Sequence record: OR192075.1
DNA length: 64,000 nucleotides
Source: Escherichia phage MIZ6
Direction: 5' to 3' (one strand)
The notes below the pieces were generated by a model. The model worked only from the letters and a program-made list of their open reading frames with translations, had not been told where the DNA came from and did no database searches. This document shows, one piece after another, positions 26,520 to 48,070 of this stretch. A program made the position numbers and the translations under genes. The stretch's first letter is position 1; every line of letters begins with the position of its first letter.

Positions 26520-26527
26520 TATAAATA
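26520..26527 (+). promoter_or_regulatory. T4-type late promoter -10 element TATAAATA upstream of gene 34
   Basis: exact TATAAATA about 28 nt upstream of ATG 26556. Confidence 0.5.
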
Positions 26528-26555: not shown

Positions 26556-29500
26556 ATGGCAGATTTTTCTCAACATTTCAAGGCCACATTTGGCTTTGAC
26601 GCTGGTAATGAAAAGGTCGTCAATGTAGCATACGCAGATAAAAACACATCAACGGATGCGGTCAACGTTGAATTTTTCAATTACCATAATGGTATTACTC
26701 AGTATGACACAACTCGCGGTTATGATCAATACGGAACTACAATCTATCAAAACCGTCCGTATTATGCAAAAGAAGATATCACAAAGCCAGCAGGTGATTT
26801 TGACCCGACTAAATGGCAAGCACTGCGCACCGATCCACGTTGGGATTATATTGCAGCAACTTCCGGTGATACTCCTTTAAAGTCTGGTGATTATATCGCA
26901 GCAGATGGTCAATTTGCAAACTTGACTTTCTCTATGCCAACTAAACCAGCAGAGGGAGACACTATAACAGTAAAAGATATCGGTGGCAAGTGTGGTGTTA
27001 ACGAATTATCGTTCTTGAGTTCAGGACATGAGTTTTACCATAACGGTAATGTGTATAACCGAAAATGGTATTGCACTACCCCGTATGCAATGAACTATTT
27101 CATCTTTGTTCGGAATCGTTGGCATGTTTATCAGACGGGAACAGAGCCGCGCGGTGTGTACGCACAGCCAGCGATTGATGCTATTCAAATGCAGAATGGT
27201 GACCAGGTATTTCGTCGTAGTTCGTTGGGTAATATTACCTTAGTGCTTCCTAAGTTTGCCAACAATGGCGACATGATCCAGACTACAGACCTTGACGGAT
27301 TAACCGCAACCAACCACGTTACGGTTAAAGTTCATGAGCACGCAGAAGAACAATCAATTGGCACGTCCGGTCTAAAAGAGATTATCGGTAAGCGTAGCGG
27401 TCATGGTGTATTCATCTTTGACAAGACGGAAAACTTATGGCGTTTGTGGGATGGTGATCAGTCTGTTCGTCTTAAACCGATCATCGATGACACTCGCTTG
27501 CAACCTAATAGCTATGTTGCTGTATTTGGTGATCGTGATGTTACTCTGACGCTGCCGACCAATGTCGAGCCGGGTGATCGTATTCAAGTTTCTATGCAGT
27601 ATATGCACGGAAACCAGAATTGCCGTATTATCACCCCCACAGAGGATACAAAAATCCTTATGCAGAAAAACATGGTTCAGTTTCCTAAGCGTAGCGAGTA
27701 CCCATTCAACGGGACCGACACATGGAAGGAAGTGTCTGAATTGTCGTTCAATGCGGCTAGTGATTATGTACCTTATCTGGAGTTCTCTTATTCAGAAGGT
27801 GATGATGGTAAGAAACATTGGCTGGTAGCACACTCTCATCCGATCGTCGAACGAGTAGACCCTACTCGTAAAGAGCGTGTTGGTGTAATTGCACTGGCTA
27901 CCCAGGATGAAACAAACAAAAACCATGAAGATAATCCTAGCGACGAAGTTGCGGTGACTCCAAAGGTTCTGGCTAATAAAACAGCCAACGAAACTCGACG
28001 CGGTATTGCTCGCATTGCAACTCAAGCGGAAACGCATCAAGATACTGGTTCCAACTTCCTGGATGATGTTATCGTTACGCCTAAAAAGTTAAATGACTGT
28101 GTTGCTACCGAAGCCCGTCGTGGTGTGATGGAAATTGCAACCCAGCACGAAACCAATGAAGGTTTAGACGATACCCGCGCTATTACTCCTAAGAAATTAG
28201 AAGAACGTCGCGCTTCCGAAGATCTCGCTGGTATTGCTGAAATTGTTCAGGTTGGCGGTAGTGCTGCCGCTCGACGTGGCGAAGCTGGTACAGGGATCTA
28301 TAACATCAACGACCATGCTAAAATTGTTACGCCAAAAAACATCAACGAGGTCAAGGCGACCGAAACTTCCCGTGGTGTTGGCTATCTGGCAACTGACGCG
28401 GAAGTGCAAGGGGCTACAGAATCAACCCCGCAAGATGCTTTACTAATCACGACTCGCACGCTAACGAAACGTACTGCTACCGAATCGCGCACTGGTATCG
28501 CTGAAATTGCAACTCAGGAAGAAACAAACTTAGGTCAAAGTGATAACCATATCATCACGCCTAAAAAGCTGCATACTCGCCGCGCAACGGAAACTTTACA
28601 TGGTTTAGCAGAAATTGCAACTCAGCCGGAATTTGACGCAGGTCTTGACGATGCTCGCATTTCTACTCCATTGAAGATTAAAACCTTCTTTGAGAATGCA
28701 CAGCGTTTGAAAGTAGATCCGACTCAGGGGCTTAACCTTACTGGTGATTTGTGGCAAGGTATCATGATCAGCGGTCTGGATGCAACCGAAGACACAAAAG
28801 GTGTCGCTAAAGTTGCTACTACTCAGCTTACGGATGCTGGTCAAGATGATACTACAATCATCACGCCTAAAAAGCTGCAAGGCAAAAAAGCCACCGAAGG
28901 TAAAGAAGGTATTATCCGCGTTGGTACTCAAGCCGAAACCGTGGCTGGTACACTGGCTAATGTAGCAATTTCTCCGAAGAACTTCAAATATGTTGTTCAG
29001 ACAGAGGATACATGGAAAGCAACCGAAGCTCGTCGTGGTTTCTTGAAAGTTGCTACTCAGGAAAACTGTTTTGTTGGTGACAATCTGCAAGGTTCTACTC
29101 AAGAACTAGGAAACTACCAGCATGACGGAATTGCTGTTACTCCGAAAGGATTAAACTACGCACTTGCTAATTTCTTACCTAAGATGGCAACCGCTCAGAA
29201 TAGTTTGAAATTGGGTAACGTAGAGGCCGCTAAATGGGCGCGTAGAGACATTGACCAGACCATAGAGAGCAATTACACGTTTAATAAAAACGTTAACGTG
29301 AAGGGCGATTTAGGGTGCTTAAAATCTGGTTCCTTTGAAACTCTTTCTGTGACTAAGAACTCTACTGATGTTCCGAGTAATGGTCATCTGGTGTTGGGTA
29401 AGCGTGGAGTTGACGGTCACACCGGAATTACTCTGCATGGTACAACCGCATCGGAAGGCATGAAAAACTCGTGGTCTATTATCGTTGGTGGTACTGGAAC

Positions 29501-30296
29501 AGCGCAAGTTGTTGATAGTGATGCTATCGCTTTCGGTCAAATCAATGATGGTGGAGTCGTCGAGCATTACGCCTTTGCTGTGGAACACAATGGCGACGCG
29601 ACAGCATATAGAGACTTTATTGCAGGTCGTAACCTGTATGCGAAACAAGGCGGTTTATACATTGTTGACCAGTCTAATCCGGCAATGACTCGTTCCCCAG
29701 ATGGTATGCTGAATATCGGTCACGGTGGAAGTGTTAACATCAAGGCAGGTCATCAAACGTTAACTACCGAGATCGCCGGACAGAAATATCAGATCGTACA
29801 CGCAGGAAACGCTGACGAAGTTCTTAACCGTCAGTTTGTTAAGAATGCTGGCGATACAATGGTCGGCAAGCTGACTATGGATAATGCGCCTATTGTTTCT
29901 GTTAAGCATGAAGCTAGCGCGGCAACCGCTCCGGCAATCGGCAACATCGGTTTCTGGAATATGCGAGTTACTACCCAGAACATCAAAGAAACTTATCCAG
30001 AGAAGAAAAACGGTACTCTGATGCAATGGGGTACTGACGCGGACGGGCTTACCCAGCTTTGGTCCCCTGATGGTACTCATAAACATTATATCCGTTCCGG
30101 TACTGGTGGTCAATGGACCGCATGGGGTGAAATTTACACCAAACAGAATAAGCCTACCGCTCAGGAAATCGGGGCAGTAGTTGCAGAAGGTGGTTTAATG
30201 AACTCTATGACGGTTCGTGATTGGATCAAAGTTGGTAATGTTAAAATCATCGCCAATAATCTGACTCGTACCGTAGACTTTATCTGGGAAGACTAA
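26556..30296 (+). CDS. 34: long tail fibre proximal subunit (T4 gp34-like)
   Basis: 1246 aa; N-terminus and repeated ATQ/ITPKKL motifs match T4 gp34. Confidence 0.9.
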   Translation: MADFSQHFKATFGFDAGNEKVVNVAYADKNTSTDAVNVEFFNYHNGITQYDTTRGYDQYGTTIYQNRPYYAKEDITKPAGDFDPTKWQALRTDPRWDYIAATSGDTPLKSGDYIAADGQFANLTFSMPTKPAEGDTITVKDIGGKCGVNELSFLSSGHEFYHNGNVYNRKWYCTTPYAMNYFIFVRNRWHVYQTGTEPRGVYAQPAIDAIQMQNGDQVFRRSSLGNITLVLPKFANNGDMIQTTDLDGLTATNHVTVKVHEHAEEQSIGTSGLKEIIGKRSGHGVFIFDKTENLWRLWDGDQSVRLKPIIDDTRLQPNSYVAVFGDRDVTLTLPTNVEPGDRIQVSMQYMHGNQNCRIITPTEDTKILMQKNMVQFPKRSEYPFNGTDTWKEVSELSFNAASDYVPYLEFSYSEGDDGKKHWLVAHSHPIVERVDPTRKERVGVIALATQDETNKNHEDNPSDEVAVTPKVLANKTANETRRGIARIATQAETHQDTGSNFLDDVIVTPKKLNDCVATEARRGVMEIATQHETNEGLDDTRAITPKKLEERRASEDLAGIAEIVQVGGSAAARRGEAGTGIYNINDHAKIVTPKNINEVKATETSRGVGYLATDAEVQGATESTPQDALLITTRTLTKRTATESRTGIAEIATQEETNLGQSDNHIITPKKLHTRRATETLHGLAEIATQPEFDAGLDDARISTPLKIKTFFENAQRLKVDPTQGLNLTGDLWQGIMISGLDATEDTKGVAKVATTQLTDAGQDDTTIITPKKLQGKKATEGKEGIIRVGTQAETVAGTLANVAISPKNFKYVVQTEDTWKATEARRGFLKVATQENCFVGDNLQGSTQELGNYQHDGIAVTPKGLNYALANFLPKMATAQNSLKLGNVEAAKWARRDIDQTIESNYTFNKNVNVKGDLGCLKSGSFETLSVTKNSTDVPSNGHLVLGKRGVDGHTGITLHGTTASEGMKNSWSIIVGGTGTAQVVDSDAIAFGQINDGGVVEHYAFAVEHNGDATAYRDFIAGRNLYAKQGGLYIVDQSNPAMTRSPDGMLNIGHGGSVNIKAGHQTLTTEIAGQKYQIVHAGNADEVLNRQFVKNAGDTMVGKLTMDNAPIVSVKHEASAATAPAIGNIGFWNMRVTTQNIKETYPEKKNGTLMQWGTDADGLTQLWSPDGTHKHYIRSGTGGQWTAWGEIYTKQNKPTAQEIGAVVAEGGLMNSMTVRDWIKVGNVKIIANNLTRTVDFIWED

Positions 30297-30329: not shown

Positions 30330-31469
30330 ATGACACAAGATATAGAATTACGCAACACTGGAATTAGGTTTGCGCATTTCGACGAAGACTCTGCGACATT
30401 TACCAGCATTTCAGAAAATAACTCTGTGATGTATAAGCTGGAAGTGCGCGGATCTAATGCGGATTCTACCAAACCAGCAAGAATTAGATTTAATGGAGTG
30501 GAGATCGTTGGCACTGGCTATGAAAATGGCCTAAATTTTAAAGTTCTTACTCCAACTGGACAACTACACGAAGAAAAGGTATTCTATGGTCGCGGTGCTG
30601 TTTTGGCAATGCGTGATTATCTTTCTTTGCTGAAAGGTGACTATATCATTGCGATGGCAACGCATGGAGAATTGTTTGCAGATCCGATAAGTGATGTTGT
30701 ATTTTCTAAGATGGGATCTGTATCATTCCCGAATCACATTTTGCTACAGCAAATGCCTCGCGTATCCTATGCAGCAATTTATTCTACTAAAATGGGTAAA
30801 ATTGTGTGCGAAGGGATGCAAGCGACCCACGGGGAAGGACAAGATTCATCTATACAAATTGAGAAGGTTTATGATACTATAGATGATCTTGCTATAACAG
30901 GAACACCACAACGATTTTTAGATTATCCGGTTGAGTATGTTAGCGAAGATGCCGAACATTTCGAGCTAATACAATGGCCTCGTGATGAGACCAGCGCACC
31001 ACTTGAGGATTTTAACATAAAGGCAGGTGACAAACTATCAATATCCTTTGAATTGTTCCGTGATAGTGCCGCAGCCGCAGCCAACGTAACAGCGCGTTTC
31101 TATCACAACTACTTCACCGATGGACAATATCAAACTGGTGTTCGATACAATGCCAGCAAAAAAGACCAATGGGAAAAGTTTGAAGCCGTCTATACCGTAC
31201 CGGAAGGTGTCGATAGTGTAGTAACTGGTTGTATCAGATATCCAACCAACTCCAATGAAGGTATTGTTAAAATTAGAAACATACTAATAACGCCGATCAG
31301 TGGAGTGGTCAAAACTACTGGTCCTACTTCATTTGGTGTTAATGGTGTTAGAACAACTCATATTCAGGATAACGGTGATTTTACTAACCCTGTAATGAGT
31401 CTTCTTAAGCTGCCTAGAGACAATAAACATATCACATCCAACAACTTTAAAGAGTTCGATGTTGATTAA
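30330..31469 (+). CDS. 35: long tail fibre hinge protein (T4 gp35-like)
   Basis: 379 aa (T4 gp35 is 372 aa); position between 34 and 36. Confidence 0.75.
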   Translation: MTQDIELRNTGIRFAHFDEDSATFTSISENNSVMYKLEVRGSNADSTKPARIRFNGVEIVGTGYENGLNFKVLTPTGQLHEEKVFYGRGAVLAMRDYLSLLKGDYIIAMATHGELFADPISDVVFSKMGSVSFPNHILLQQMPRVSYAAIYSTKMGKIVCEGMQATHGEGQDSSIQIEKVYDTIDDLAITGTPQRFLDYPVEYVSEDAEHFELIQWPRDETSAPLEDFNIKAGDKLSISFELFRDSAAAAANVTARFYHNYFTDGQYQTGVRYNASKKDQWEKFEAVYTVPEGVDSVVTGCIRYPTNSNEGIVKIRNILITPISGVVKTTGPTSFGVNGVRTTHIQDNGDFTNPVMSLLKLPRDNKHITSNNFKEFDVD

Positions 31470-31481
31470 CATTTTTAACAA

Positions 31482-31510
31482 GCCGATCCATGTGGTCGGC
31501 TTTATTTTTA
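31482..31510 (+). terminator. rho-independent terminator after gene 35
   Basis: hairpin GCCGATCCATGTGGTCGGC followed by TTTATTTTTA. Confidence 0.65.
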
Positions 31511-31515
31511 TACAG

Positions 31516-31534
31516 TTGGTTAAAATGTAACCAA
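31516..31534. promoter_or_regulatory. perfect palindrome TTGGTTA-N5-TAACCAA (possible operator)
   Basis: seen in 34/35 to 36 intergenic region. Confidence 0.3.
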
Positions 31535-31631
31535 AACGAAGAAAGATCTTTAGAATAATAGAAAATTTGTTTCGGTTAAAAATTAGTCAGTGCCTCCGGC
31601 ACGTCGCGAAGCGATATTTTTGTTAACATTC

Positions 31632-31639
31632 TATAAATA
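31632..31639 (+). promoter_or_regulatory. T4-type late promoter -10 element TATAAATA upstream of gene 36
   Basis: exact TATAAATA about 33 nt upstream of ATG 31673. Confidence 0.5.
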
Positions 31640-31672
31640 CTCGGAACTATAACTAATTTTTGAGGTTACTTT

Positions 31673-33163
31673 ATGGCAGATTTGAAATATGGATCTACTG
31701 TAGGTGGATCTCCCATTTGGACGCAAGGAAACTTGACGATCCAGCCAGCGGGGGATCAGCTTTTCTACAAAGGTCATAAAATCTATACCGCTTTTGATAG
31801 ACCTTCGGCTACCGATTTTGATGCTGTTAGTGCATCCGAAGGTGGCACATTTCAAAAGCAAGTTCATTTCGAGGAAGGTTTAAGCGTAGGTAGCGCATCG
31901 GCTGGAGAAACCAAAAAGAATGGTATCTTTAAAGGTCAGAGTGACGCTGCTAATTTTGACGGCGTAAGCTGGGGTTTGCATTCATGGAAGTCAATCGGCT
32001 TTGTTAATGCCCGTGATGGCGTTATTATGGCGTATATTGACACCACAACGGGCGAATTTAAGTCTAAAGGGACTATCGAAGGGACAACCATTAAAGACAC
32101 AGGTCAACGCGTCTATAGCCCTGTTAATAAACCAACGAATAATGATTTAGATTTGGTGTCTCGTCGCGGTGATACCCTCACAGGAACATATAATTTAAAC
32201 ACCGTCACTGTTAAACTATCGGTTGATTCGAAATTAATTGCAAGGGAACGTGATTTAATTAATTTTGATGCGACTAAGATCTATTATGGTAACGTTCTTG
32301 ATACGTTGGTCTTCCGAAGTAAAGATGAGCCTACCATTTTTGTTAATGGCAAAGAAGGTCGTTTTTATCACACCAACAATAAACCAACTAAAGCCGATGT
32401 TGGACTAGGCAATGTCACCAATGATGCACAGGTTAAACGTGCTGGTGATATTATGGAAGGTAACTTGCAAGCGCCTAGAATGTTGGCGACAAACGATCCT
32501 GCTGGTCCGAATGAATTGGTTCGTTTGAGCTACTTTGAGAGAAAATCAATGGTAGCAAATCCAACCATCATAGGAAACGTTGATTGGAACACTCTTATTA
32601 ATCGCGGTATCTATCGTGTGGAAAATGCTGGGTCGGGTACTAATAAACCGTCTGATAGCTATTATAACGGCGTTTTGATGGTATATCGCCCAGAAGATGC
32701 GGTCGGTACTCGTCGAATTGTTCAGGTGTATTATCCTGAATCTATTGACCATCCGATGTGCTGGCGTTCTTGTTCTAATGAATCATGGACTGCATGGAAC
32801 TATGTAGATCACCGTAAATTAGCCGATATTCGCTATGTTAACGTAACTGGCGATACCATGACAGGACCGTTAACTGTTCCGGCTGCAAACGGTGTTAGAA
32901 CGGCTAAAACTAACTATAACGGGGATAACTGTTATGCGGCGTTAAGCGGTGCTGATGGTACTGCTATGATTCACCGCATTAGTGATATTAAAGGGACCGA
33001 AAAGCTGGGGATCACCCACGACTCAAAGGTCGTGTTTTTCCGTTCTAGAAACAATACTCAAACCGTGGACCGCTATCAGCTTTATCATGAAGGTAATAAA
33101 CCTACTCCGGCTGATGTTGGAGCGGTTCCACTTAATGCGGTGATTGATTTTGGTACTTTCTAA
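31673..33163 (+). CDS. 36: long tail fibre distal connector (T4 gp36-like, enlarged)
   Basis: N-terminus MADLKYGSTVGGSPIWTQGN matches T4 gp36; 496 aa versus 221 aa in T4. Confidence 0.8.
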   Translation: MADLKYGSTVGGSPIWTQGNLTIQPAGDQLFYKGHKIYTAFDRPSATDFDAVSASEGGTFQKQVHFEEGLSVGSASAGETKKNGIFKGQSDAANFDGVSWGLHSWKSIGFVNARDGVIMAYIDTTTGEFKSKGTIEGTTIKDTGQRVYSPVNKPTNNDLDLVSRRGDTLTGTYNLNTVTVKLSVDSKLIARERDLINFDATKIYYGNVLDTLVFRSKDEPTIFVNGKEGRFYHTNNKPTKADVGLGNVTNDAQVKRAGDIMEGNLQAPRMLATNDPAGPNELVRLSYFERKSMVANPTIIGNVDWNTLINRGIYRVENAGSGTNKPSDSYYNGVLMVYRPEDAVGTRRIVQVYYPESIDHPMCWRSCSNESWTAWNYVDHRKLADIRYVNVTGDTMTGPLTVPAANGVRTAKTNYNGDNCYAALSGADGTAMIHRISDIKGTEKLGITHDSKVVFFRSRNNTQTVDRYQLYHEGNKPTPADVGAVPLNAVIDFGTF

Positions 33164-33233: not shown

Positions 33234-35990
33234 ATGGCAGATTTAAGCAGAATCCAATTTAAACGCACTAGCACTAAAGGTCGTAAACCTGATGCTAGTG
33301 CGATGAATCCGGGGGAATTGGCAATCAACCTTGCGGATCAATATCTTCTTACTAAAAATGATTCCGGTGCTATTATCAATTTAAGTTGTCCTCCGGTGTA
33401 TGACCGACAAGTTAGATTCGCTGGTAAGGTTGACGGTGACAACTATATTTTAGGTAAAACTGCTAACTATATGGATGATTCAACCGCTCGCGACCTTAAC
33501 AAATTTGGTGCGTTTCGAACGAATAATGCTGATGGATGGTCTAACTTGATTCTGAACATTCCTCATTCTAGCGGTAAAGCACACGGTCGCGGGTTTGAAT
33601 TTCAATATGGTTCTAGTTCCTCTCAGGTTAAAACCTATGGCTTTGATCAGGATGGTAACAAGAGATTCAGTTACCGCATGTATCATGAAGGCGATAAACC
33701 TACACCATCGGAATTGAACGTTTACAGCAAACAAGAAGTAGATAGAATGTTTGTTAAAAACGTTAAAATGTCTACTCCTCCCGATGTAAGTCGAGGATAT
33801 TTCAAAATTGCTACCGCCATGATCCCCCAGCAAGGAAAAATGGCATTTATTCGTATCTATGGTGGTAATGGATATAACGTTAACTCTATGGATCAAGTTG
33901 ACTTTGTAGAAATCGTGATTCGTGGTGGGAATGGAAATCCTAAAGGTGTTAGTATTGCAGCATATCGACGAAATGCTTTAAATCAGCTTGAAGTATTTGC
34001 TATTAATACATCTGGTGATAACTATGATATCTATGTAAAATATGGTCGATACACCGATAACGTTATTGTAGAATTTGGAAAAACGGTCGATGTTAATTTA
34101 ACTGTTCATGATGTTCCGGCTTTTTCGGAAGCAAAACCTGCTGGTACTACCTTTGAAGGTCGTGTTATTACGATGTTCAACACCGAAAACAAAGCCGGAA
34201 CGTTGATGTTTGATAATAACTCACAAGCAACCTATGATATTGTGAGCCTTAGCAATGCACCTGATAATAGCCGAAATTATCTGCGTAAATTCCGTAGCAA
34301 AGCGAATGAAACAATATGGCATGAAACTGTTCAAGGTGATGTGTATCGTCTGGCTACTGGTTCCACCGACCAAAAAGAAGTATTAAAAATTGTTGGTAGT
34401 GATGGTTTATTTGTCAATAGACTTCATCTGCAAGGCAATAACGCGATTCGTATGTGGCGTCCTACTGGTTGTAGTAACTATTTTGAATATATGGATCAGC
34501 GAGACGGGGCTAATAAACGTCAAGGCTGGTTTGGTTTTGGTTCTACAGAAACCAACGATTTTCAATGGTATAGTGACGAAGGTAAAAACTTTGTTAAGCT
34601 AGAAGCAAGTGGTCAAGTATCTTTAAGCGCAGGTGCAACCAAAATTGTATACACTAATGGTCAATATGTAGCTGCCAATTCTGATGCATACCGTATGATC
34701 TTTGGTAATTATGGTGCATTCTGGCGTAATGACGGCACTAAAGTTTATCTTCTTTCTACTGCCGAAAATGATCGTTTTGGTGGATGGAATAGCTATCGTC
34801 CATTCATTTATGATTTAACTTCCGGTAACGTTCAATTAGGCGGTGATGGTAACGAAGATGCATTAACGTTAGAATGTGCTTCTCGTGCCGCTCGCTTTAG
34901 TAATGACGTTTACATTAAGAAAGGGCTTTTGACTTTCGACGCTGGGCGATTAAATTCCCGCGATTACTTCCGGTTTAACCATTGGGGCGATAGCAATAAC
35001 GGTCGCGATAACATCCTACAGATTGAAGACAGTCAGGGCGCACATTTTATCACTGAACGTGCTATGGGTACTGGTAACATAACAACACGTTTTAGAGGCT
35101 TTGTACGTGTAGAATCTGGTGAAATTGCATTTGATGCTAACCGTGGTTCTTCTTCGCAATTTAGTCTCCATACATGGGGTAATGAATCACGAAAACAAGT
35201 TTTTGAATGTAAGGATGCAACAAGTTATCATTGGTATACCGAACGTACTGCGGGTGGCACTGGTCCGGTTAAGTTCTCTGTTGCAGGTTCTTTCTATAGC
35301 GGAAGCGATGTTAACGTAGGCGGTAGTCTGAATTTTGGTAATGCTATTCAACGCGGCGCTAGCGTCATTACTATAGATTCTGGTTCTGCGGGTGCTGGTT
35401 CTTTTGCATCTCAACATGATGATAACGTCAAAGCACCTATTTTCCAACGTTTAGACCGTGGTGATGCGTCTATATATGTTCCTTTGATTAAGCAACGTTA
35501 TGTTCAAGGTGCAGTAACATTCTCGTTGGGTATGCTTCTTAACGAAGGTTCATGGCGAGTTCATGTTAAAGGTTCTGGTGTTGAATCTAATACTACCTTC
35601 TATAAAAACGGCGATTTCCAAGCTGGACGCAATGGTAACTTTAACGACGTTTACATTCGCTCTGACTCTCGCCTGAAAATCAACAAGGAAGAGTATAAAG
35701 AGAATGCTACCGATAAAGTAAATAATCTTAAGGTATATTCCTACGATAAGGTTAAATCTTTAACCGACCGTACTGTAATCGCTCATGAAGTTGGTATTAT
35801 TGCTCAGGATCTTGAAAAAGAATTGCCGGAAGCAGTAACAACTTCTAACATCGGCGACCCAGATAACCCAGAAGAGATCTTAACAATTTCTAACTCTGCT
35901 GTCAACGCTCTTTTAATTAAGGCGTTTCAGGAAATGAGCGAAGAATTGAAAGCCGTTAAAGCTGAACTAGCGGAACTTAAAAAGAATTAA
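33234..35990 (+). CDS. 37: long tail fibre distal subunit (T4 gp37-like) with C-terminal intramolecular chaperone domain
   Basis: N-terminus and AGAGSFASQ..YVP.IKQRYVQG block match T4 gp37; C-terminal SDSRLK autocleavage-type motif and coiled-coil tail. Confidence 0.88.
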   Translation: MADLSRIQFKRTSTKGRKPDASAMNPGELAINLADQYLLTKNDSGAIINLSCPPVYDRQVRFAGKVDGDNYILGKTANYMDDSTARDLNKFGAFRTNNADGWSNLILNIPHSSGKAHGRGFEFQYGSSSSQVKTYGFDQDGNKRFSYRMYHEGDKPTPSELNVYSKQEVDRMFVKNVKMSTPPDVSRGYFKIATAMIPQQGKMAFIRIYGGNGYNVNSMDQVDFVEIVIRGGNGNPKGVSIAAYRRNALNQLEVFAINTSGDNYDIYVKYGRYTDNVIVEFGKTVDVNLTVHDVPAFSEAKPAGTTFEGRVITMFNTENKAGTLMFDNNSQATYDIVSLSNAPDNSRNYLRKFRSKANETIWHETVQGDVYRLATGSTDQKEVLKIVGSDGLFVNRLHLQGNNAIRMWRPTGCSNYFEYMDQRDGANKRQGWFGFGSTETNDFQWYSDEGKNFVKLEASGQVSLSAGATKIVYTNGQYVAANSDAYRMIFGNYGAFWRNDGTKVYLLSTAENDRFGGWNSYRPFIYDLTSGNVQLGGDGNEDALTLECASRAARFSNDVYIKKGLLTFDAGRLNSRDYFRFNHWGDSNNGRDNILQIEDSQGAHFITERAMGTGNITTRFRGFVRVESGEIAFDANRGSSSQFSLHTWGNESRKQVFECKDATSYHWYTERTAGGTGPVKFSVAGSFYSGSDVNVGGSLNFGNAIQRGASVITIDSGSAGAGSFASQHDDNVKAPIFQRLDRGDASIYVPLIKQRYVQGAVTFSLGMLLNEGSWRVHVKGSGVESNTTFYKNGDFQAGRNGNFNDVYIRSDSRLKINKEEYKENATDKVNNLKVYSYDKVKSLTDRTVIAHEVGIIAQDLEKELPEAVTTSNIGDPDNPEEILTISNSAVNALLIKAFQEMSEELKAVKAELAELKKN

Positions 35991-36030
35991 GGAAACTCCC
36001 AGGGAAGGGAACTACTAAGGAGAAACGGCT

Positions 36031-36270
36031 ATGGTCTATAATATCGTCATTGGCGCTTTGTCTAATTTCGGAATGAAATTATTGTCAAAGTTAATTAGTG
36101 AAAAGATGCTCACTAAAATTTTCTTCTATTGCGCTCGTCGTCTTGCGGCTTATACCAATACGCCAATTGATGATCGTTTTGTGGAAGAACTTTATAAGGA
36201 GTTTAATAAAGATCAGTCAGAAGATAGTAACGAGCAAGATAAATCTAGTGATAGTCAACTACCTAAATAA
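36031..36270 (+). CDS. hypothetical protein with hydrophobic N-terminus
   Basis: strong RBS AAGGAGAAA; sits where T4 has gp38. Confidence 0.55.
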   Translation: MVYNIVIGALSNFGMKLLSKLISEKMLTKIFFYCARRLAAYTNTPIDDRFVEELYKEFNKDQSEDSNEQDKSSDSQLPK

Positions 36271-36303: not shown

Positions 36304-36960
36304 ATGCAAGTTTCTGAAAAAGGGAAAGACTTTGCTATCTCAAATGTCCTGCGCGCTATTTTCACAACTAAAAGCACGGAGTTGCTCGTACTTCGTGTTT
36401 TTGCTGCCGTCGTGTTGTCCATATTGGCATTTGTCGTTTATAGTAAAAACGAGTTATTTGCGCTTTATAAAGAGACTCGTTATGAGACTTATGCTCACAT
36501 TCTCCAGGTAGAGAAAGACCGCAATTTTGATAATGCAGCACAGGAGCAGTTACAGATAGTTCATGTGTCGGCTGATGCCGATTTTTCTGCTGTTTTTAGT
36601 TTTCGTCCGAAAAACCTAAACTATTTTGTTGATTTGGTGGCATATGAAGGAAAGCTACCACACACAATCGATGAAAAAAATTTAGGCGGATTCCCTATCA
36701 ATAAAACGAGTGAAGAATATCGTAGGCATCTTTTAGGTAAATCATATTTTACCGATAAAGATTTCCAGTATATTCCATCAAGAGAAAAGAAATTAGAGAA
36801 TATCGATATAGGTTTCATGTATTCTTGTCCTATATTCAATCTCGATAATGTCTATTCTGGTAGTATCGCCATTTCATGGAAGAATAAACCGGATATTGAC
36901 ATTGAGAATTTAGATACTCTTTGCAATCAATCTGCCAGAATCCTCGGAAGGATTAGATAA
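36304..36960 (+). CDS. t: holin (T4 t-like)
   Basis: 218 aa, colinear with T4 T holin (QLQIVH.S.EADFSAV.SFRPKNLNYFVD..AYEGKLP, ARILGR). Confidence 0.9.
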   Translation: MQVSEKGKDFAISNVLRAIFTTKSTELLVLRVFAAVVLSILAFVVYSKNELFALYKETRYETYAHILQVEKDRNFDNAAQEQLQIVHVSADADFSAVFSFRPKNLNYFVDLVAYEGKLPHTIDEKNLGGFPINKTSEEYRRHLLGKSYFTDKDFQYIPSREKKLENIDIGFMYSCPIFNLDNVYSGSIAISWKNKPDIDIENLDTLCNQSARILGRIR

Positions 36961-36966
36961 CTTAAA

Positions 36967-36998
36967 GGGGAAGCCTTTCGGCCTCCCCTTCTTTTTAT
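36967..36998 (+). terminator. rho-independent terminator, probably bidirectional
   Basis: hairpin GGGGAAGCC-TTTC-GGCCTCCCC followed by TTCTTTTTATT. Confidence 0.6.
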
Positions 36999-44763: not shown

Positions 44764-45756
44764 TTAGTAATGGCTAAAACCTTCGGTTACATCTTCAACC
44801 ACATAGTAACGATGACAGCGCATTTTGGCATTCGCATAATCTTTCGGGATACTTACAACGTGACGCGGATCAACTTTACATTTAATGATTCGGCCTCGTC
44901 CACCGCCATAGTGCGGAATATAGTGTTTCGCTGCAACGTGGAGTCCATTAGAGCAAGTGCGATCATCATCTGGGTCCACGTCTTTACGCTTCATTTTAAC
45001 CGTGCGCCCTGGGCTATTATCAAACGTATGCGTAAAGAAATCTTTATAATCAACATCAACACGTTTCCATGCATAGAAACAACCATCTTCCCCGATCTCA
45101 ATGTCGTTGTGCTCTAAGAAGTCAAATAGACGATCTACCGCCTTACGGCTAGGGTTTTTCTTGCACTTCTCAAAGAAGTTCAGATAGTGCGTATATGGCT
45201 TATTCTCTTTAATCGACTCCACAACTCGACGAGTCAGATTATTATCAAGAACAATATTATGATAATACACAATACCATTTTCGATACGGAAAGCGCCGTG
45301 ATAATATACTTCAACCGCTTTCTTAATGTCAATCAGCGTAATAGCTTTGATGAAATCATTATGTTTAATCGCTTCCAGTGCTTCATTAAAGTTAACATGC
45401 GACGGATCAGCAGTATAAACAATGTCACCACATGTAATAGTAATAAACTTAGTTGAGGCTATTGCTACGATTTTTGAGGAAGTAGTCACGGGCTTTTTTG
45501 CGCGTTCACCTCCTTTTCCTTTACTGGTTTTACGGCGTGCTTTACGTTTTTCTAGTGCCTTGCGACCTTCCGCTACTGCGTCTTTCTGAATCAGTAATAC
45601 ACGGGAAGCAGTACGACGAGATACCCCAAATGCTGCCGCAAGTGCTTCGCGGGTAGTAAACTTACCTTCGCCCCACTGTTTAGCCAGTTTGATTTGTTTT
45701 TCAGAATCCAGGCATTGAACGTTACGGTCAGAGACGGTGATTTTTGCTTTAGTCAT
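44764..45756 (-). CDS. rIIB: rIIB protein with N-terminal HTH extension
   Basis: colinear with T4 rIIB (SRKAVDRLFDFL, YAWKRV, CSNGLHV, PRHVVSIP.DYANAKMRCH.YYVVEDVTE). Confidence 0.88.
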   Translation of the reverse strand: MTKAKITVSDRNVQCLDSEKQIKLAKQWGEGKFTTREALAAAFGVSRRTASRVLLIQKDAVAEGRKALEKRKARRKTSKGKGGERAKKPVTTSSKIVAIASTKFITITCGDIVYTADPSHVNFNEALEAIKHNDFIKAITLIDIKKAVEVYYHGAFRIENGIVYYHNIVLDNNLTRRVVESIKENKPYTHYLNFFEKCKKNPSRKAVDRLFDFLEHNDIEIGEDGCFYAWKRVDVDYKDFFTHTFDNSPGRTVKMKRKDVDPDDDRTCSNGLHVAAKHYIPHYGGGRGRIIKCKVDPRHVVSIPKDYANAKMRCHRYYVVEDVTEGFSHY

Positions 45757-45818
45757 AGTATTCATTCCTCTATTAGTTGGGCGACTATCGCCGCCCGATT
45801 CACATCATTATACCAGAA

Positions 45819-45950
45819 TTATTTTGCTTCTACAACCTTGCGGATTGTGCGGTCTGATACATTATAGATTCGTGCCAGTTCGCCTTTAGTCAAGCCGCGA
45901 GCGTATTGTTTACGGATGGTTTCTTTCTGGATAGCGGTCAGTTTAGTCAT
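45819..45950 (-). CDS. small helix-turn-helix protein (43 aa) resembling the rIIB N-terminal HTH
   Basis: hand-translated MTKLTAIQKETIRKQYARGLTKGELARIYNVSDRTIRKVVEAK; RBS GAGGTGA. Confidence 0.5.
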   Translation of the reverse strand: MTKLTAIQKETIRKQYARGLTKGELARIYNVSDRTIRKVVEAK

Positions 45951-45961
45951 AATATCACCTC

Positions 45962-48070
45962 TTAAAATTTAACATTCTTAACCAGTTTCATAAAGTCTTG
46001 TGCGCGTTTGTCGTTATGCAGAATACGATACCAGTTATCTACAATATCATACAGTAACGGGCTATTCTCTTTAAACTTAGCACAAACTGCTTTAATTCGT
46101 TCGTTTGCTGCCGTGAATTTTTCATCACAGATCTTTTTAGTTTCTTCGTCCATAATCCAACGAGTACGAAGGAGTAACTTGGAAACCTCTTTATTATAAT
46201 GACGACCGTACAGTCTGTCAATAAATTCTGGAACACAGCGTTCTAATTCATCGTCATGATACAACATAGTGATCACACCCAGATATTCGCCATACCCCAG
46301 ATGATTGGTCTTAACCTTCTTAGCCAGACCAGCCAGCTTACCGCGAACAAATTCTAGCGCACATTCCAATTGTTCGTCAACGAGATATTTTTGTGTCTCG
46401 TTTCGAGTAATAATATACTTTGTTACCCCGAAGTAGTCAAGCGCCGTGTGTAATGTATTTTCATTATAGATCGATTGACGGCTACGGCTTTCGAATGCAT
46501 CACCTACGCGGAACATGTGCAAGCCTGATAACTCGCGAATCTCTGCCGCTTTCATGTGATGGCTGGTTTTATGCCAACTGTCACCAATCTTTTCCATGAT
46601 ATACACGTTAGGCAGCTTGGGAGTAGCTTCACGTTGTGTACGCTCGGTCTTCTCCGGCTTAACTGCTTTAGCACGCAGATCATCGGCCTCTGATACCTTA
46701 ATCACGGTCATTTCAGATTCATCATAATACTGTTTGATGTACTCGAAAGTCTCCATATGTTTTTCGTTGCGCTGACGGAACACCAGTACCTTTTTATTAA
46801 TGCCGTATTCCTGGACCATGCCGTTAAGAGTCAGTGCACGCAGTTTCGGTTTATCGGTATCATCAATAAGACACGTAATATCTTCTTTATGCATCCATAC
46901 AAAATGCGTAATATTGTATTGACTGCTAACGAAAGCAGGTCGCAATTTGCTGATTGTGTGTCGATGATGATACAGAGTATACACCTGACCTTCTACGTCA
47001 TTAGGCGAATCTTTACCCGCATTCACAAACTTATTATAGATTGCTACCGGATCATCCCACTGTCCGATCTTACCCATCTTGCTAATAATATTGCGTTGCG
47101 TCGATGAATACTCGCTCATAAATTGCGCAAGTTTACGCTCTGTTTTAATGTTGGCGATCTTCTCTTTAACCTTTTCCAACATCATTTCATTGATTTCTGC
47201 AATGCGTTTTTCGATGTTCGCTTTAGTCTCAATTGACAAGTGAACTTCTTCACGCGATGGCATCAGGTCCAAATCACCCAACTCAAAATTAATGTAAATG
47301 GTCTGGTGCTGGCGGTTTACAGCTTCTAACCATGTTCCGCGAACATATTCATACGGGATCGGATACTGGATCTTACCCATGATTGCATATACTACATAGG
47401 AATCGTTATCACGCCCATTACAAACATAATAATTATCAAAGCTAGGGAAATAATTAATTTCGATTGCATTGATATTAGGTTTGTGTTCACCAAAATGACG
47501 CAGTACAAACTGTGCTTCTCGATGCCATGTCTGAATGTCTTTTTCTTTCACCGGAATAGTGATTTTCAGACCATTGTCTTCATAGGTCGGTTCGTCGAAA
47601 ATCTGCACCATTTTCGGCATAGAGTTTTGCACAAATGCCGTAAAGCCATAAGCGCGACCATTGTAGTAGTTTACGATTGTAAAGGTGTCGGTGTAGCTAT
47701 AAGCAGATTTCGCACCCAAACCAAAAGATCCGATATAATCATTAGTTTGGTCTTTTGTTGATTCAAAGTAAACCGTAAACAGTTGTTCTAATTCTTTCTT
47801 AGACGGAATACCAGTACCATAATCACGCACAGAAAAATACGGTTCGATTGCAGTTGGTAAATGAATATCAAACGGACGATCTAAGGTTCCGGCTTCTTTG
47901 TGAGTGTCGGTAGCATTGCACGAATACTCACGGACACAAGCACGTTCACAATATTGATAAGTGTTCTTAGAAAGCACCATAAAAGCCTTGCTACTTGCTT
48001 TCAGTGAAAAATCAACCGCACCGCTCAAGTCACTGCCAAATACTTCTTCATTATCAATATGCATTTTCAT
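45962..48070 (-). CDS. rIIA: rIIA protein
   Basis: colinear with T4 rIIA N-terminal ATPase-like region (DYGTG, NDYIGSFGLGAKSAYSYTDTFTI). Confidence 0.9.
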   Translation of the reverse strand: MKMHIDNEEVFGSDLSGAVDFSLKASSKAFMVLSKNTYQYCERACVREYSCNATDTHKEAGTLDRPFDIHLPTAIEPYFSVRDYGTGIPSKKELEQLFTVYFESTKDQTNDYIGSFGLGAKSAYSYTDTFTIVNYYNGRAYGFTAFVQNSMPKMVQIFDEPTYEDNGLKITIPVKEKDIQTWHREAQFVLRHFGEHKPNINAIEINYFPSFDNYYVCNGRDNDSYVVYAIMGKIQYPIPYEYVRGTWLEAVNRQHQTIYINFELGDLDLMPSREEVHLSIETKANIEKRIAEINEMMLEKVKEKIANIKTERKLAQFMSEYSSTQRNIISKMGKIGQWDDPVAIYNKFVNAGKDSPNDVEGQVYTLYHHRHTISKLRPAFVSSQYNITHFVWMHKEDITCLIDDTDKPKLRALTLNGMVQEYGINKKVLVFRQRNEKHMETFEYIKQYYDESEMTVIKVSEADDLRAKAVKPEKTERTQREATPKLPNVYIMEKIGDSWHKTSHHMKAAEIRELSGLHMFRVGDAFESRSRQSIYNENTLHTALDYFGVTKYIITRNETQKYLVDEQLECALEFVRGKLAGLAKKVKTNHLGYGEYLGVITMLYHDDELERCVPEFIDRLYGRHYNKEVSKLLLRTRWIMDEETKKICDEKFTAANERIKAVCAKFKENSPLLYDIVDNWYRILHNDKRAQDFMKLVKNVKF

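Follow-up and report, generated by a model that had tools for sequence, protein, structure and literature searches.

Gene 37 of Escherichia phage MIZ6, which encodes the distal subunit of the long tail fibre, is followed by a small open reading frame (ORF) and by the holin gene t in a 64,000-nucleotide stretch of sequence record OR192075.1, called the window below. [quoted passage not shown] The 3.8 kb around g37 are 100% identical to Escherichia phage MIZ3 (OR167179.1), an RB49-like Krischvirus of the Straboviridae, and 85-94% identical to kaaroe, JSE, RB49, Phi1 and other members of Krischvirus; a window position equals the position in the MIZ3 record minus 32000. The features on which the argument turns are the following.

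33234..35990, plus strand: gene 37 for the distal subunit of the long tail fibre, from the ORF list; 918 aa and a stop codon, with 100% identity to the MIZ3 protein annotated 'long tail fiber protein distal subunit'.
35661..35987, plus strand: intramolecular chaperone and autocleavage domain, aa 810-918, 109 residues, PF13884; predicted to be released after trimerisation.
35661..35678, plus strand: SDSRLK, aa 810-815, with the putative catalytic residues Ser810 (35661-35663) and Lys815 (35676-35678); the scissile bond is predicted to be Arg809-Ser810.
36017..36022, plus strand: Shine-Dalgarno sequence AAGGAG of the small ORF, whose ATG comes 8 nt further on, read from the sequence.
36031..36270, plus strand: small ORF (RB49p252 or 'dc5' in RB49), 79 aa, PHROG 402 and, by its homologues, PF26925 Phage_PM2_Gpl; putative lysis accessory protein.
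36304..36960, plus strand: gene t, T4-type holin, 218 aa, Phage_holin_T; labelled holin in MIZ3 and RB49.

A first-pass annotation of the stretch had proposed that the last 110 residues or so of gp37 form a C-terminal intramolecular chaperone domain in which SDSRLK is followed by a coiled-coil tail, and this part of it is borne out. The search that it had suggested, for an S74-like profile match, returned Peptidase_S74 (PF13884; E = 2.1e-11): aa 810-869 cover its complete profile (1-58/58) and score 44.3 bits, where the cut-off is 22, and 109 residues run from Ser810 to the C-terminus. Since this score far exceeds the threshold and 391 phage records contain the small ORF in conserved form, neither the S74 match nor the small ORF is a matter of chance. 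When the last 176 residues of gp37 were compared with PDB sequences by phmmer, the gp37 fragment of phage S16 in 6F45 was matched (E = 4e-5) in an alignment that spans the SD-R-K site and the C-terminal helix. A profile of 12 homologues of 60-92% identity reached the same S16 protein (6F45_A) at E = 3.6e-9 and, weakly, the MyRF ICA domain 7DC3 (E = 0.048). An AlphaFold2 monomer model of aa 783-918 has a mean pLDDT of 72, with 80-87 in the core and about 72-82 in the terminal helix; it shows a four-strand core (model residues 52-58, 66-73, 86-93 and 96-103) and then a 31-residue helix (105-135, corresponding to about aa 887-917), which fits the proposed coiled-coil tail. The ten best Foldseek matches of this model in the PDB are all ICA/IMC structures, namely MyRF ICA 7DC3 (E = 1.6e-5, TM 0.66) and, at a probability of 0.96-1.00, endoNF 3GW6 and GA-1 3GUD. 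Outside this domain, gp37 matches Pfam Gp34_trimer at aa 416-526 and PHROG 1699 (E = 4e-148).

gp37 shares with the MEROPS S74 group of endoNF, the L-shaped fibre of T5, GA-1 gp12 and the MyRF ICA domain both the profile match and a Ser-x4-Lys dyad at the start of the domain, and, at the very end of a trimeric fibre, a beta-rich core with a long C-terminal helix, although sequence identity between the gp37 domain and the solved ICA/IMC domains is as low as 11-19%. In those proteins, the tip of the fibre itself is left as the receptor binder, whereas release of the domain here would uncover a docking site for a separate adhesin. Another model is the tip of Salmonella phage S16 and of the T2/T6 type, in which three gp37 chains with a self-cleaving C-terminal domain carry a monomeric gp38 (PDB 6F45), and with which gp37 here aligns across both the site and the chaperone domain.

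Where is gp37 expected to be cut? The first-pass annotation had placed cleavage after the Ser, which is one bond off, because homologous sites are cut before it. S16 gp37 is cut at DLNVS^SDRRIKK, and the aligned site in T2-like Yersinia (fPS) phages is DVYIR^SDGRLKI (PMC7917993); MyRF is cut at P586|S587, its S587 and K592 being equivalent to S911 and K916 of endoNF (PMC8326128). The site here is DVYIR-SDSRLKI, and from these counterparts cleavage is expected at R809|S810, which would leave 809 residues in mature gp37 and set free a domain of 109. It may be supposed instead that the S74 domain is a remnant which no longer cleaves, and that full-length gp37 is built into the fibre. Cleavage is predicted here from homology, and pLDDT falls below 55 in the 30 residues around the site; but the Lys is invariant in the alignment of the 12 homologues, Ser, Asp and Arg are kept in at least 90% of its rows, the entire domain is strongly conserved at 60-92% identity, the pentapeptide before the site is identical to that of the cleaving T2-like fibres, and gp38 needs an exposed tip. 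A remnant domain is therefore very improbable.

The first-pass annotation had also concluded that gp38 is missing, and had set the chaperone domain against the separate gp38 that the fibre tip of T4 needs. Locally, the absence of gp38 stands, as g37 is followed by the small ORF and then by the holin gene without any gp38-like ORF between g37 and t, and a glycine-motif screen of window ORFs of at least 120 aa gave no obvious glycine-rich gp38-like ORF. For the phage as a whole it does not stand, because the gene is found elsewhere in the MIZ3 record.

123323..124108 of the MIZ3 record, minus strand: g38 adhesin, syntenic to RB49p079, ~55 kb from g37; about window position 91,300, outside the 64-kb window.

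RB49p079 itself (45367..46143 of RB49, minus strand) is annotated 'g38; similar to T2 and RB69 gp38 adhesin'. The 261-residue MIZ3 protein matches Pfam GP38 with E = 1e-70 and Gp38_N with E = 4e-18, so that both gp38 domains are present, and its residues 1-259 align end to end with S16 gp38 (6F45_D, E = 9e-49). Of the three docking tryptophans in the attachment domain of S16 gp38, W7 and W20 are kept, and at the position of W35 there is a Tyr. In S16, T2 and T6, g38 comes directly after g37, and its position here, ~55 kb off and on the opposite strand, is a difference of gene order and not of the protein complex. In RB49, too, g38 is displaced, with a functionally uncharacterised small ORF in its place (Trojet 2011, PMC3157838); RB49 gp37 has a self-cleaving chaperone, gp38 is attached once this chaperone is removed, and the host-range mutations E230K and Y231S map to gp38 (Efimov et al., PMC9569957).

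It is to be noted that the comparison with T4 sets side by side two different proteins with one name, because T4 gp38 is a folding chaperone that has no sequence relationship to the adhesin gp38 and is absent from the virion (PMC6851490; PMC3157838); it is like the adhesin gene in name and in its position after g37 only, and T4 is the unusual case among T-even phages (PMC6851490). At the locus described here no protein like T4 gp38 turned up, though no search was aimed at one. The contrast with T4 drawn in the first-pass annotation is thus not supported, nor is the idea that the chaperone domain stands in for gp38. In S16, loss of the last 113 residues of gp37 'exposes the Gp38 docking surface' (PMC7917993), and because release of the domain exposes this surface (PMC9569957), chaperone domain and gp38 act in sequence, not as alternatives. 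[quoted passage not shown] After the fibre has folded, the dyad of Ser810 and Lys815 would cut the Arg809-Ser810 bond and the domain would leave; one copy of gp38 would then dock on the exposed distal face of gp37 via its N-terminal attachment domain, and, when docked, would recognise OmpA or O-antigen.

A self-cleaving gp37 with a gp38 cap is the textbook architecture for T-even phages other than T4. Publications already cover the chaperone domain of RB49-type gp37 as well as the displacement of g38 and the small ORF that occupies its former position. The odd gene order of RB49 has been on record since 2002-2011. Still, the locus read alone leads to the wrong conclusion that the phage has no adhesin, and host-range engineering of RB49-like therapeutic phages should target the distant g38 and not g37. 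RB49, the type Krischvirus, has the order g37, RB49p252/dc5, t in common with this locus. Its gp37 has conserved ends, as here, while the central part differs (979 aa in RB49 and 918 aa here) and the megablast match falls into three pieces. The small ORF is nearly identical in the two phages, with 4 of its 79 codons different, but opens with GTG in RB49 and with ATG here.

What, then, does the ORF in the place of g38 encode? Its coordinates, its ribosome-binding site and the holin gene after it are as first annotated, the holin matching Pfam Phage_holin_T (PF11031) at aa 20-216 with E = 4.5e-61. A second RB49 annotation, dc5, starts at the internal Met15; the 79-codon start is favoured over this shorter one because homologues outside Krischvirus align from residue 1. 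In 54 phage records the ORF has a counterpart of at least 95% amino-acid identity, and with all recognisable homologues the number rises to 391 records, among them Ounavirinae, Grimontviridae and Lahexavirus as well as phages of Vibrio, Erwinia and Aeromonas. It matches PHROG 402 with E = 5e-20. Family alignments show invariant E24, A35, T42 and D47, near-invariant F31, F32 and D48, and a TxTPxDD turn. An AlphaFold2 model from a 24-sequence alignment predicts helices at residues 2-21, 24-42 and 45-67 with pLDDT 70-81, followed by a disordered acidic tail; a fold search with this model returned only uncharacterised members of the same family. The N-terminus, which had been called hydrophobic, is so only moderately in this protein (best 17-residue Kyte-Doolittle mean of 1.26), whereas other members reach 1.6-2.1.

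The family to which these homologues belong is named in Pfam after a protein of phage PM2. The precomputed label PF26925, Phage_PM2_Gpl, stands on 15 of 15 close homologues (mostly 84-92% and overall 65-98% identical in the part that aligns) and on 120/120 of the profile matches listed. An hhalign comparison of the 24-sequence family profile with PM2 gp l (51 aa, NC_000867) aligned 42 columns with a probability of 91.9% and E = 7e-7, the conserved Glu, Ala and D-D/N turn falling into register, and in tblastn PM2 gp l and the small ORF both weakly match one and the same ORF of phage ECO319P1. PM2 gp l, or P18, is likewise a small helical protein with the same core, that is, a Glu in helix 1, an Ala in helix 2, a T/S-x-T-x-x-D-D/N turn and an amphipathic last helix, and its gene also lies at the end of a late operon adjoining the holin gene. 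Compared with the protein here, it is shorter by about 8 residues at the start and has no acidic tail, and its holin partner is P17, whereas here it is the unrelated T. In PM2, P18 is needed for outer-membrane disruption and P17 is the holin (PMC9502842; PMC6356626). Membership in this family is thus already encoded in Pfam, though the phage records examined still call all copies of the ORF hypothetical. The original work on PM2 lysis is said to be that of Krupovic et al. in 2007, whose abstract reportedly mentions genes like ORF l in other phages. No paper mentioning PF26925 was found in a literature search.

We consider it slightly better than an even bet that the small ORF is both a homologue of the PM2 lysis factor P18 (gp l, PF26925), rather than a fibre gene, and a participant in lysis. 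As to its mode of action, a lysis accessory protein working with or after holin T is likewise slightly more likely than not. Such a protein would consist of three helices, with a hydrophobic or amphipathic N-terminus, the TxTPxDD turn and an acidic tail; it would probably be co-transcribed with t from the late promoter upstream of g36, and would probably act at or after holin triggering, in disruption of the envelope or the outer membrane.

Some matches and classes were set aside. A phmmer search against 1.84 billion representatives put tandem-repeat proteins of 2,491-3,836 aa, probably eukaryotic, on top; they were judged spurious because their scores sum many weak repeats (E down to 8e-36), and the real relatives are only phage proteins of 62-76 aa. 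Such summed-repeat matches of short helical queries call for caution in automated homology pipelines. A spanin or a disruptin was rejected as well: the protein has no lipobox, its only Cys being at position 34, the model shows three short helices without a long coiled coil, and net charges of +5 (residues 1-43) and -6 (residues 44-79) make it not cationic overall.

The position of the ORF directly after g37, where other T-even phages have g38, suggests another role, namely that of a tail-fibre accessory, a chaperone or a tip protein, which has taken over the job of gp38 at this locus. Chaperone or adhesin roles have been raised for small ORFs after g37 in Aeh1 (Trojet 2011, PMC3157838), and in Ounavirinae and LAh_6 the homologue follows a tail-fibre gene and a tail-needle knob gene, respectively. 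If the ORF served S74-bearing fibres, it should travel with them; however, the proteins encoded directly upstream of it in other phages are mutually unrelated.

Ounavirinae: fibre with a T4 gp37_C-type tip.
GAP52 and BUCT695: Ig-domain protein.
LAh_6: Sf6-type needle knob.
Vibrio podovirus: GH108 endolysin.

The S74 domain was sought in the upstream proteins of six other lineages and found in none, by which an association of the ORF with S74-bearing fibres is rejected. Furthermore, the real gp38 is encoded elsewhere and host-range mutations map to its gene, at least 20 metagenomic loci have the ORF beside an endolysin or a small membrane protein with no adjacent fibre gene, and the family is named for a lysis protein of PM2, which is tailless and fibreless. 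With probable membership in a lysis-protein family and no link to S74 fibres, the small ORF, which the first-pass annotation had set in the place of gp38, is not supported as its substitute; we regard a fibre accessory of any kind as improbable.

Lysis genes are its more regular company. A degenerate DNA pattern made from the invariant residues found 62 loci in IMG/VR, with one false positive, and neighbours were analysed at 25 loci other than Ounavirinae-like, Krischvirus-like and GAP52/LAh_6-type ones. At these 25 loci, the ORF lies inside clusters of small membrane proteins and cell-wall hydrolases; its 18 distinct immediate neighbours include M15 peptidases (3/18), GH108 proteins (2/18), GH24 lysozymes (2/18) and one unannotated PHROG (3/18). 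In Logan/ENA contigs, the ORF and an M15 endolysin form an isolated two-gene unit on the plus strand between minus-strand genes. In Ounavirinae, it lies directly 5' of a gene annotated holin, as it lies here directly 5' of holin t. No functional evidence available is stronger than this adjacency, which recurs in unrelated phages with lysis genes from several unrelated families.

Some observations were made on these neighbours. The M15 units have, just upstream, a divergently encoded protein of 148-154 aa, whose counterpart in related IMG/VR loci has 3-4 predicted transmembrane helices, so that it may be a holin. The Ounavirinae proteins annotated 'holin' or 'putative holin' have one N-terminal transmembrane helix and a long coiled coil, a build closer to PM2 P17 (gp k) or to an i-spanin than to a classical holin with several transmembrane helices. 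A marine subfamily of the small protein (75-77 aa, 12 IMG/VR loci) carries an extra, clearly hydrophobic N-terminal helix before the core, e.g., WIAVAGSIVSIIALGWLPF, and its genes sit between those for small proteins with a transmembrane helix and a coiled coil and the endolysin gene.

Such neighbourhoods are shared by the main rival, an inner-membrane partner or regulator of the holin, that is, a co-holin or an antiholin-like timing factor without any action on the outer membrane. The place directly 5' of t, the annotated holins or the proteins with a transmembrane helix and a coiled coil that adjoin the ORF in Ounavirinae and in two metagenomic groups (C and E), and the extra transmembrane helix of one subfamily would all suit a holin partner. 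So would the fact that spanins already cover the outer membrane in these phages, and that the protein has neither signal peptide nor lipobox and is not cationic overall. On the other hand, PM2 P18, the sole member studied by experiment, is assigned to outer-membrane disruption while P17 is assigned as the holin, and Krischviruses already encode rI. We rate such a partner of the holin as unlikely, though it is the alternative to be taken most seriously.

The ORF might also encode another small membrane protein at the end of the late operon, unrelated to lysis, e.g., one for superinfection exclusion or for masking of the receptor. In phages, genes for exclusion often stand beside receptor-binding genes, the copies in Grimontviridae and Lahexavirus belong to the structural module, and the hypothetical label on every database copy would allow such a role. 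Repeated direct adjacency to holins and to endolysins of three unrelated classes is hard to explain in this way, and homology to PM2 P18 also speaks for lysis; accordingly, we think little of this alternative.

Several points weigh against the reading of the locus as fibre tip plus lysis gene. Both cleavage of gp37 and attachment of gp38 are predicted by homology, and at the position of W35, the third docking Trp of S16 gp38, MIZ3 gp38 has Tyr. The N-terminal helix of the Krischvirus small protein is under the usual hydrophobicity threshold for a membrane span. The small protein had no match in NCBIfam or in a Pfam copy that lacks the PF26925 model. The link to PM2 comes from one profile comparison over 42 columns and the Pfam name, and PM2 gp l is divergent: FF is replaced by CL, T42 by S and D48 by N. 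In Grimontviridae and Lahexavirus, the homologue is found among structural genes and not among lysis genes. Finally, PM2 is a tailless corticovirus without spanins, whereas Krischviruses have T4-type spanins, and canonical spanins are found in RB49, JSE, Phi1, Felix O1, GAP52 and 7-11 (PMC6139136). Because canonical spanins are already present, the role of the small protein in these tailed phages would be conditional, redundant or different.

An ORF 'of unknown function' in the literature on the T4 superfamily can now be assigned to the same family as a lysis factor defined by genetics, and this offers a hypothesis that a convenient coliphage would allow one to test at little cost. It is tempting to go further and to regard PF26925/PHROG 402 proteins as a widespread, uncharacterised lysis component of tailed phages alongside holin, endolysin and canonical spanins, one of which replaced g38 beside t in Krischviruses; we offer this generalisation only tentatively, as rather less probable than the lysis role at this locus. 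If it is true, the proteins might serve a conditional outer-membrane step, e.g., when divalent cations stiffen the envelope, or might be a new holin partner in T4-type lysis, and RB49-like phages would be a tractable model.

The surroundings of the locus, with the putative signals of its transcription, are as follows.

26556..30296, plus strand: g34.
30330..31469, plus strand: g35.
31632..31639, plus strand: T4-type late-promoter motif TATAAATA, upstream of g36; the last before g37, the small ORF and t.
31673..33163, plus strand: g36.
36965..36998, plus strand: stem-loop with U-run, likely terminator of the late fibre and lysis transcript; RNA fold of -17.5 kcal/mol, z = -2.1, then UUCUUUUUAUU.

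On the plus strand of the window, TATAAATA occurs only at 26520, before g34, and at 31632, before g36; the count of the motif is not above chance, and its assignment as a promoter is therefore by position only. Between g36 and the end of t the motif is absent, and sigma-70-like matches are no more than background, so that a separate promoter for the small ORF or for t is unsupported. Convergent genes on the minus strand start at 36995, 3' of t. Because TATAAATA is lacking among g37, the ORF and t, and a likely terminator comes after t, we infer that g36, g37, the small ORF and t are carried on one late transcript. The 203-bp gap between g35 and g36 (31470-31672) holds a terminator-like hairpin at 31480-31502 with a T-run, and then the motif at 31632, which suggests that the fibre genes form two separate late transcription units. 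As to the region before the displaced g38 of MIZ3 (about 124109-124170 of the record, minus strand), TATAAATA is absent from the 90 nt upstream that were examined, and a GC-rich hairpin with a T-run (gccccttaattggggcttttctt) ends about 10-20 nt 5' of its start codon; it is a late structural gene inside a minus-strand cluster of early or middle appearance. Among the other fibre genes, gp36 has 496 aa here, while T4 gp36 has 221 aa, and the Pfam gp36 model is matched below threshold (E = 2.6e-4); gp35 shows a match to an ILEI domain, also below threshold, with E = 5.8e-4.

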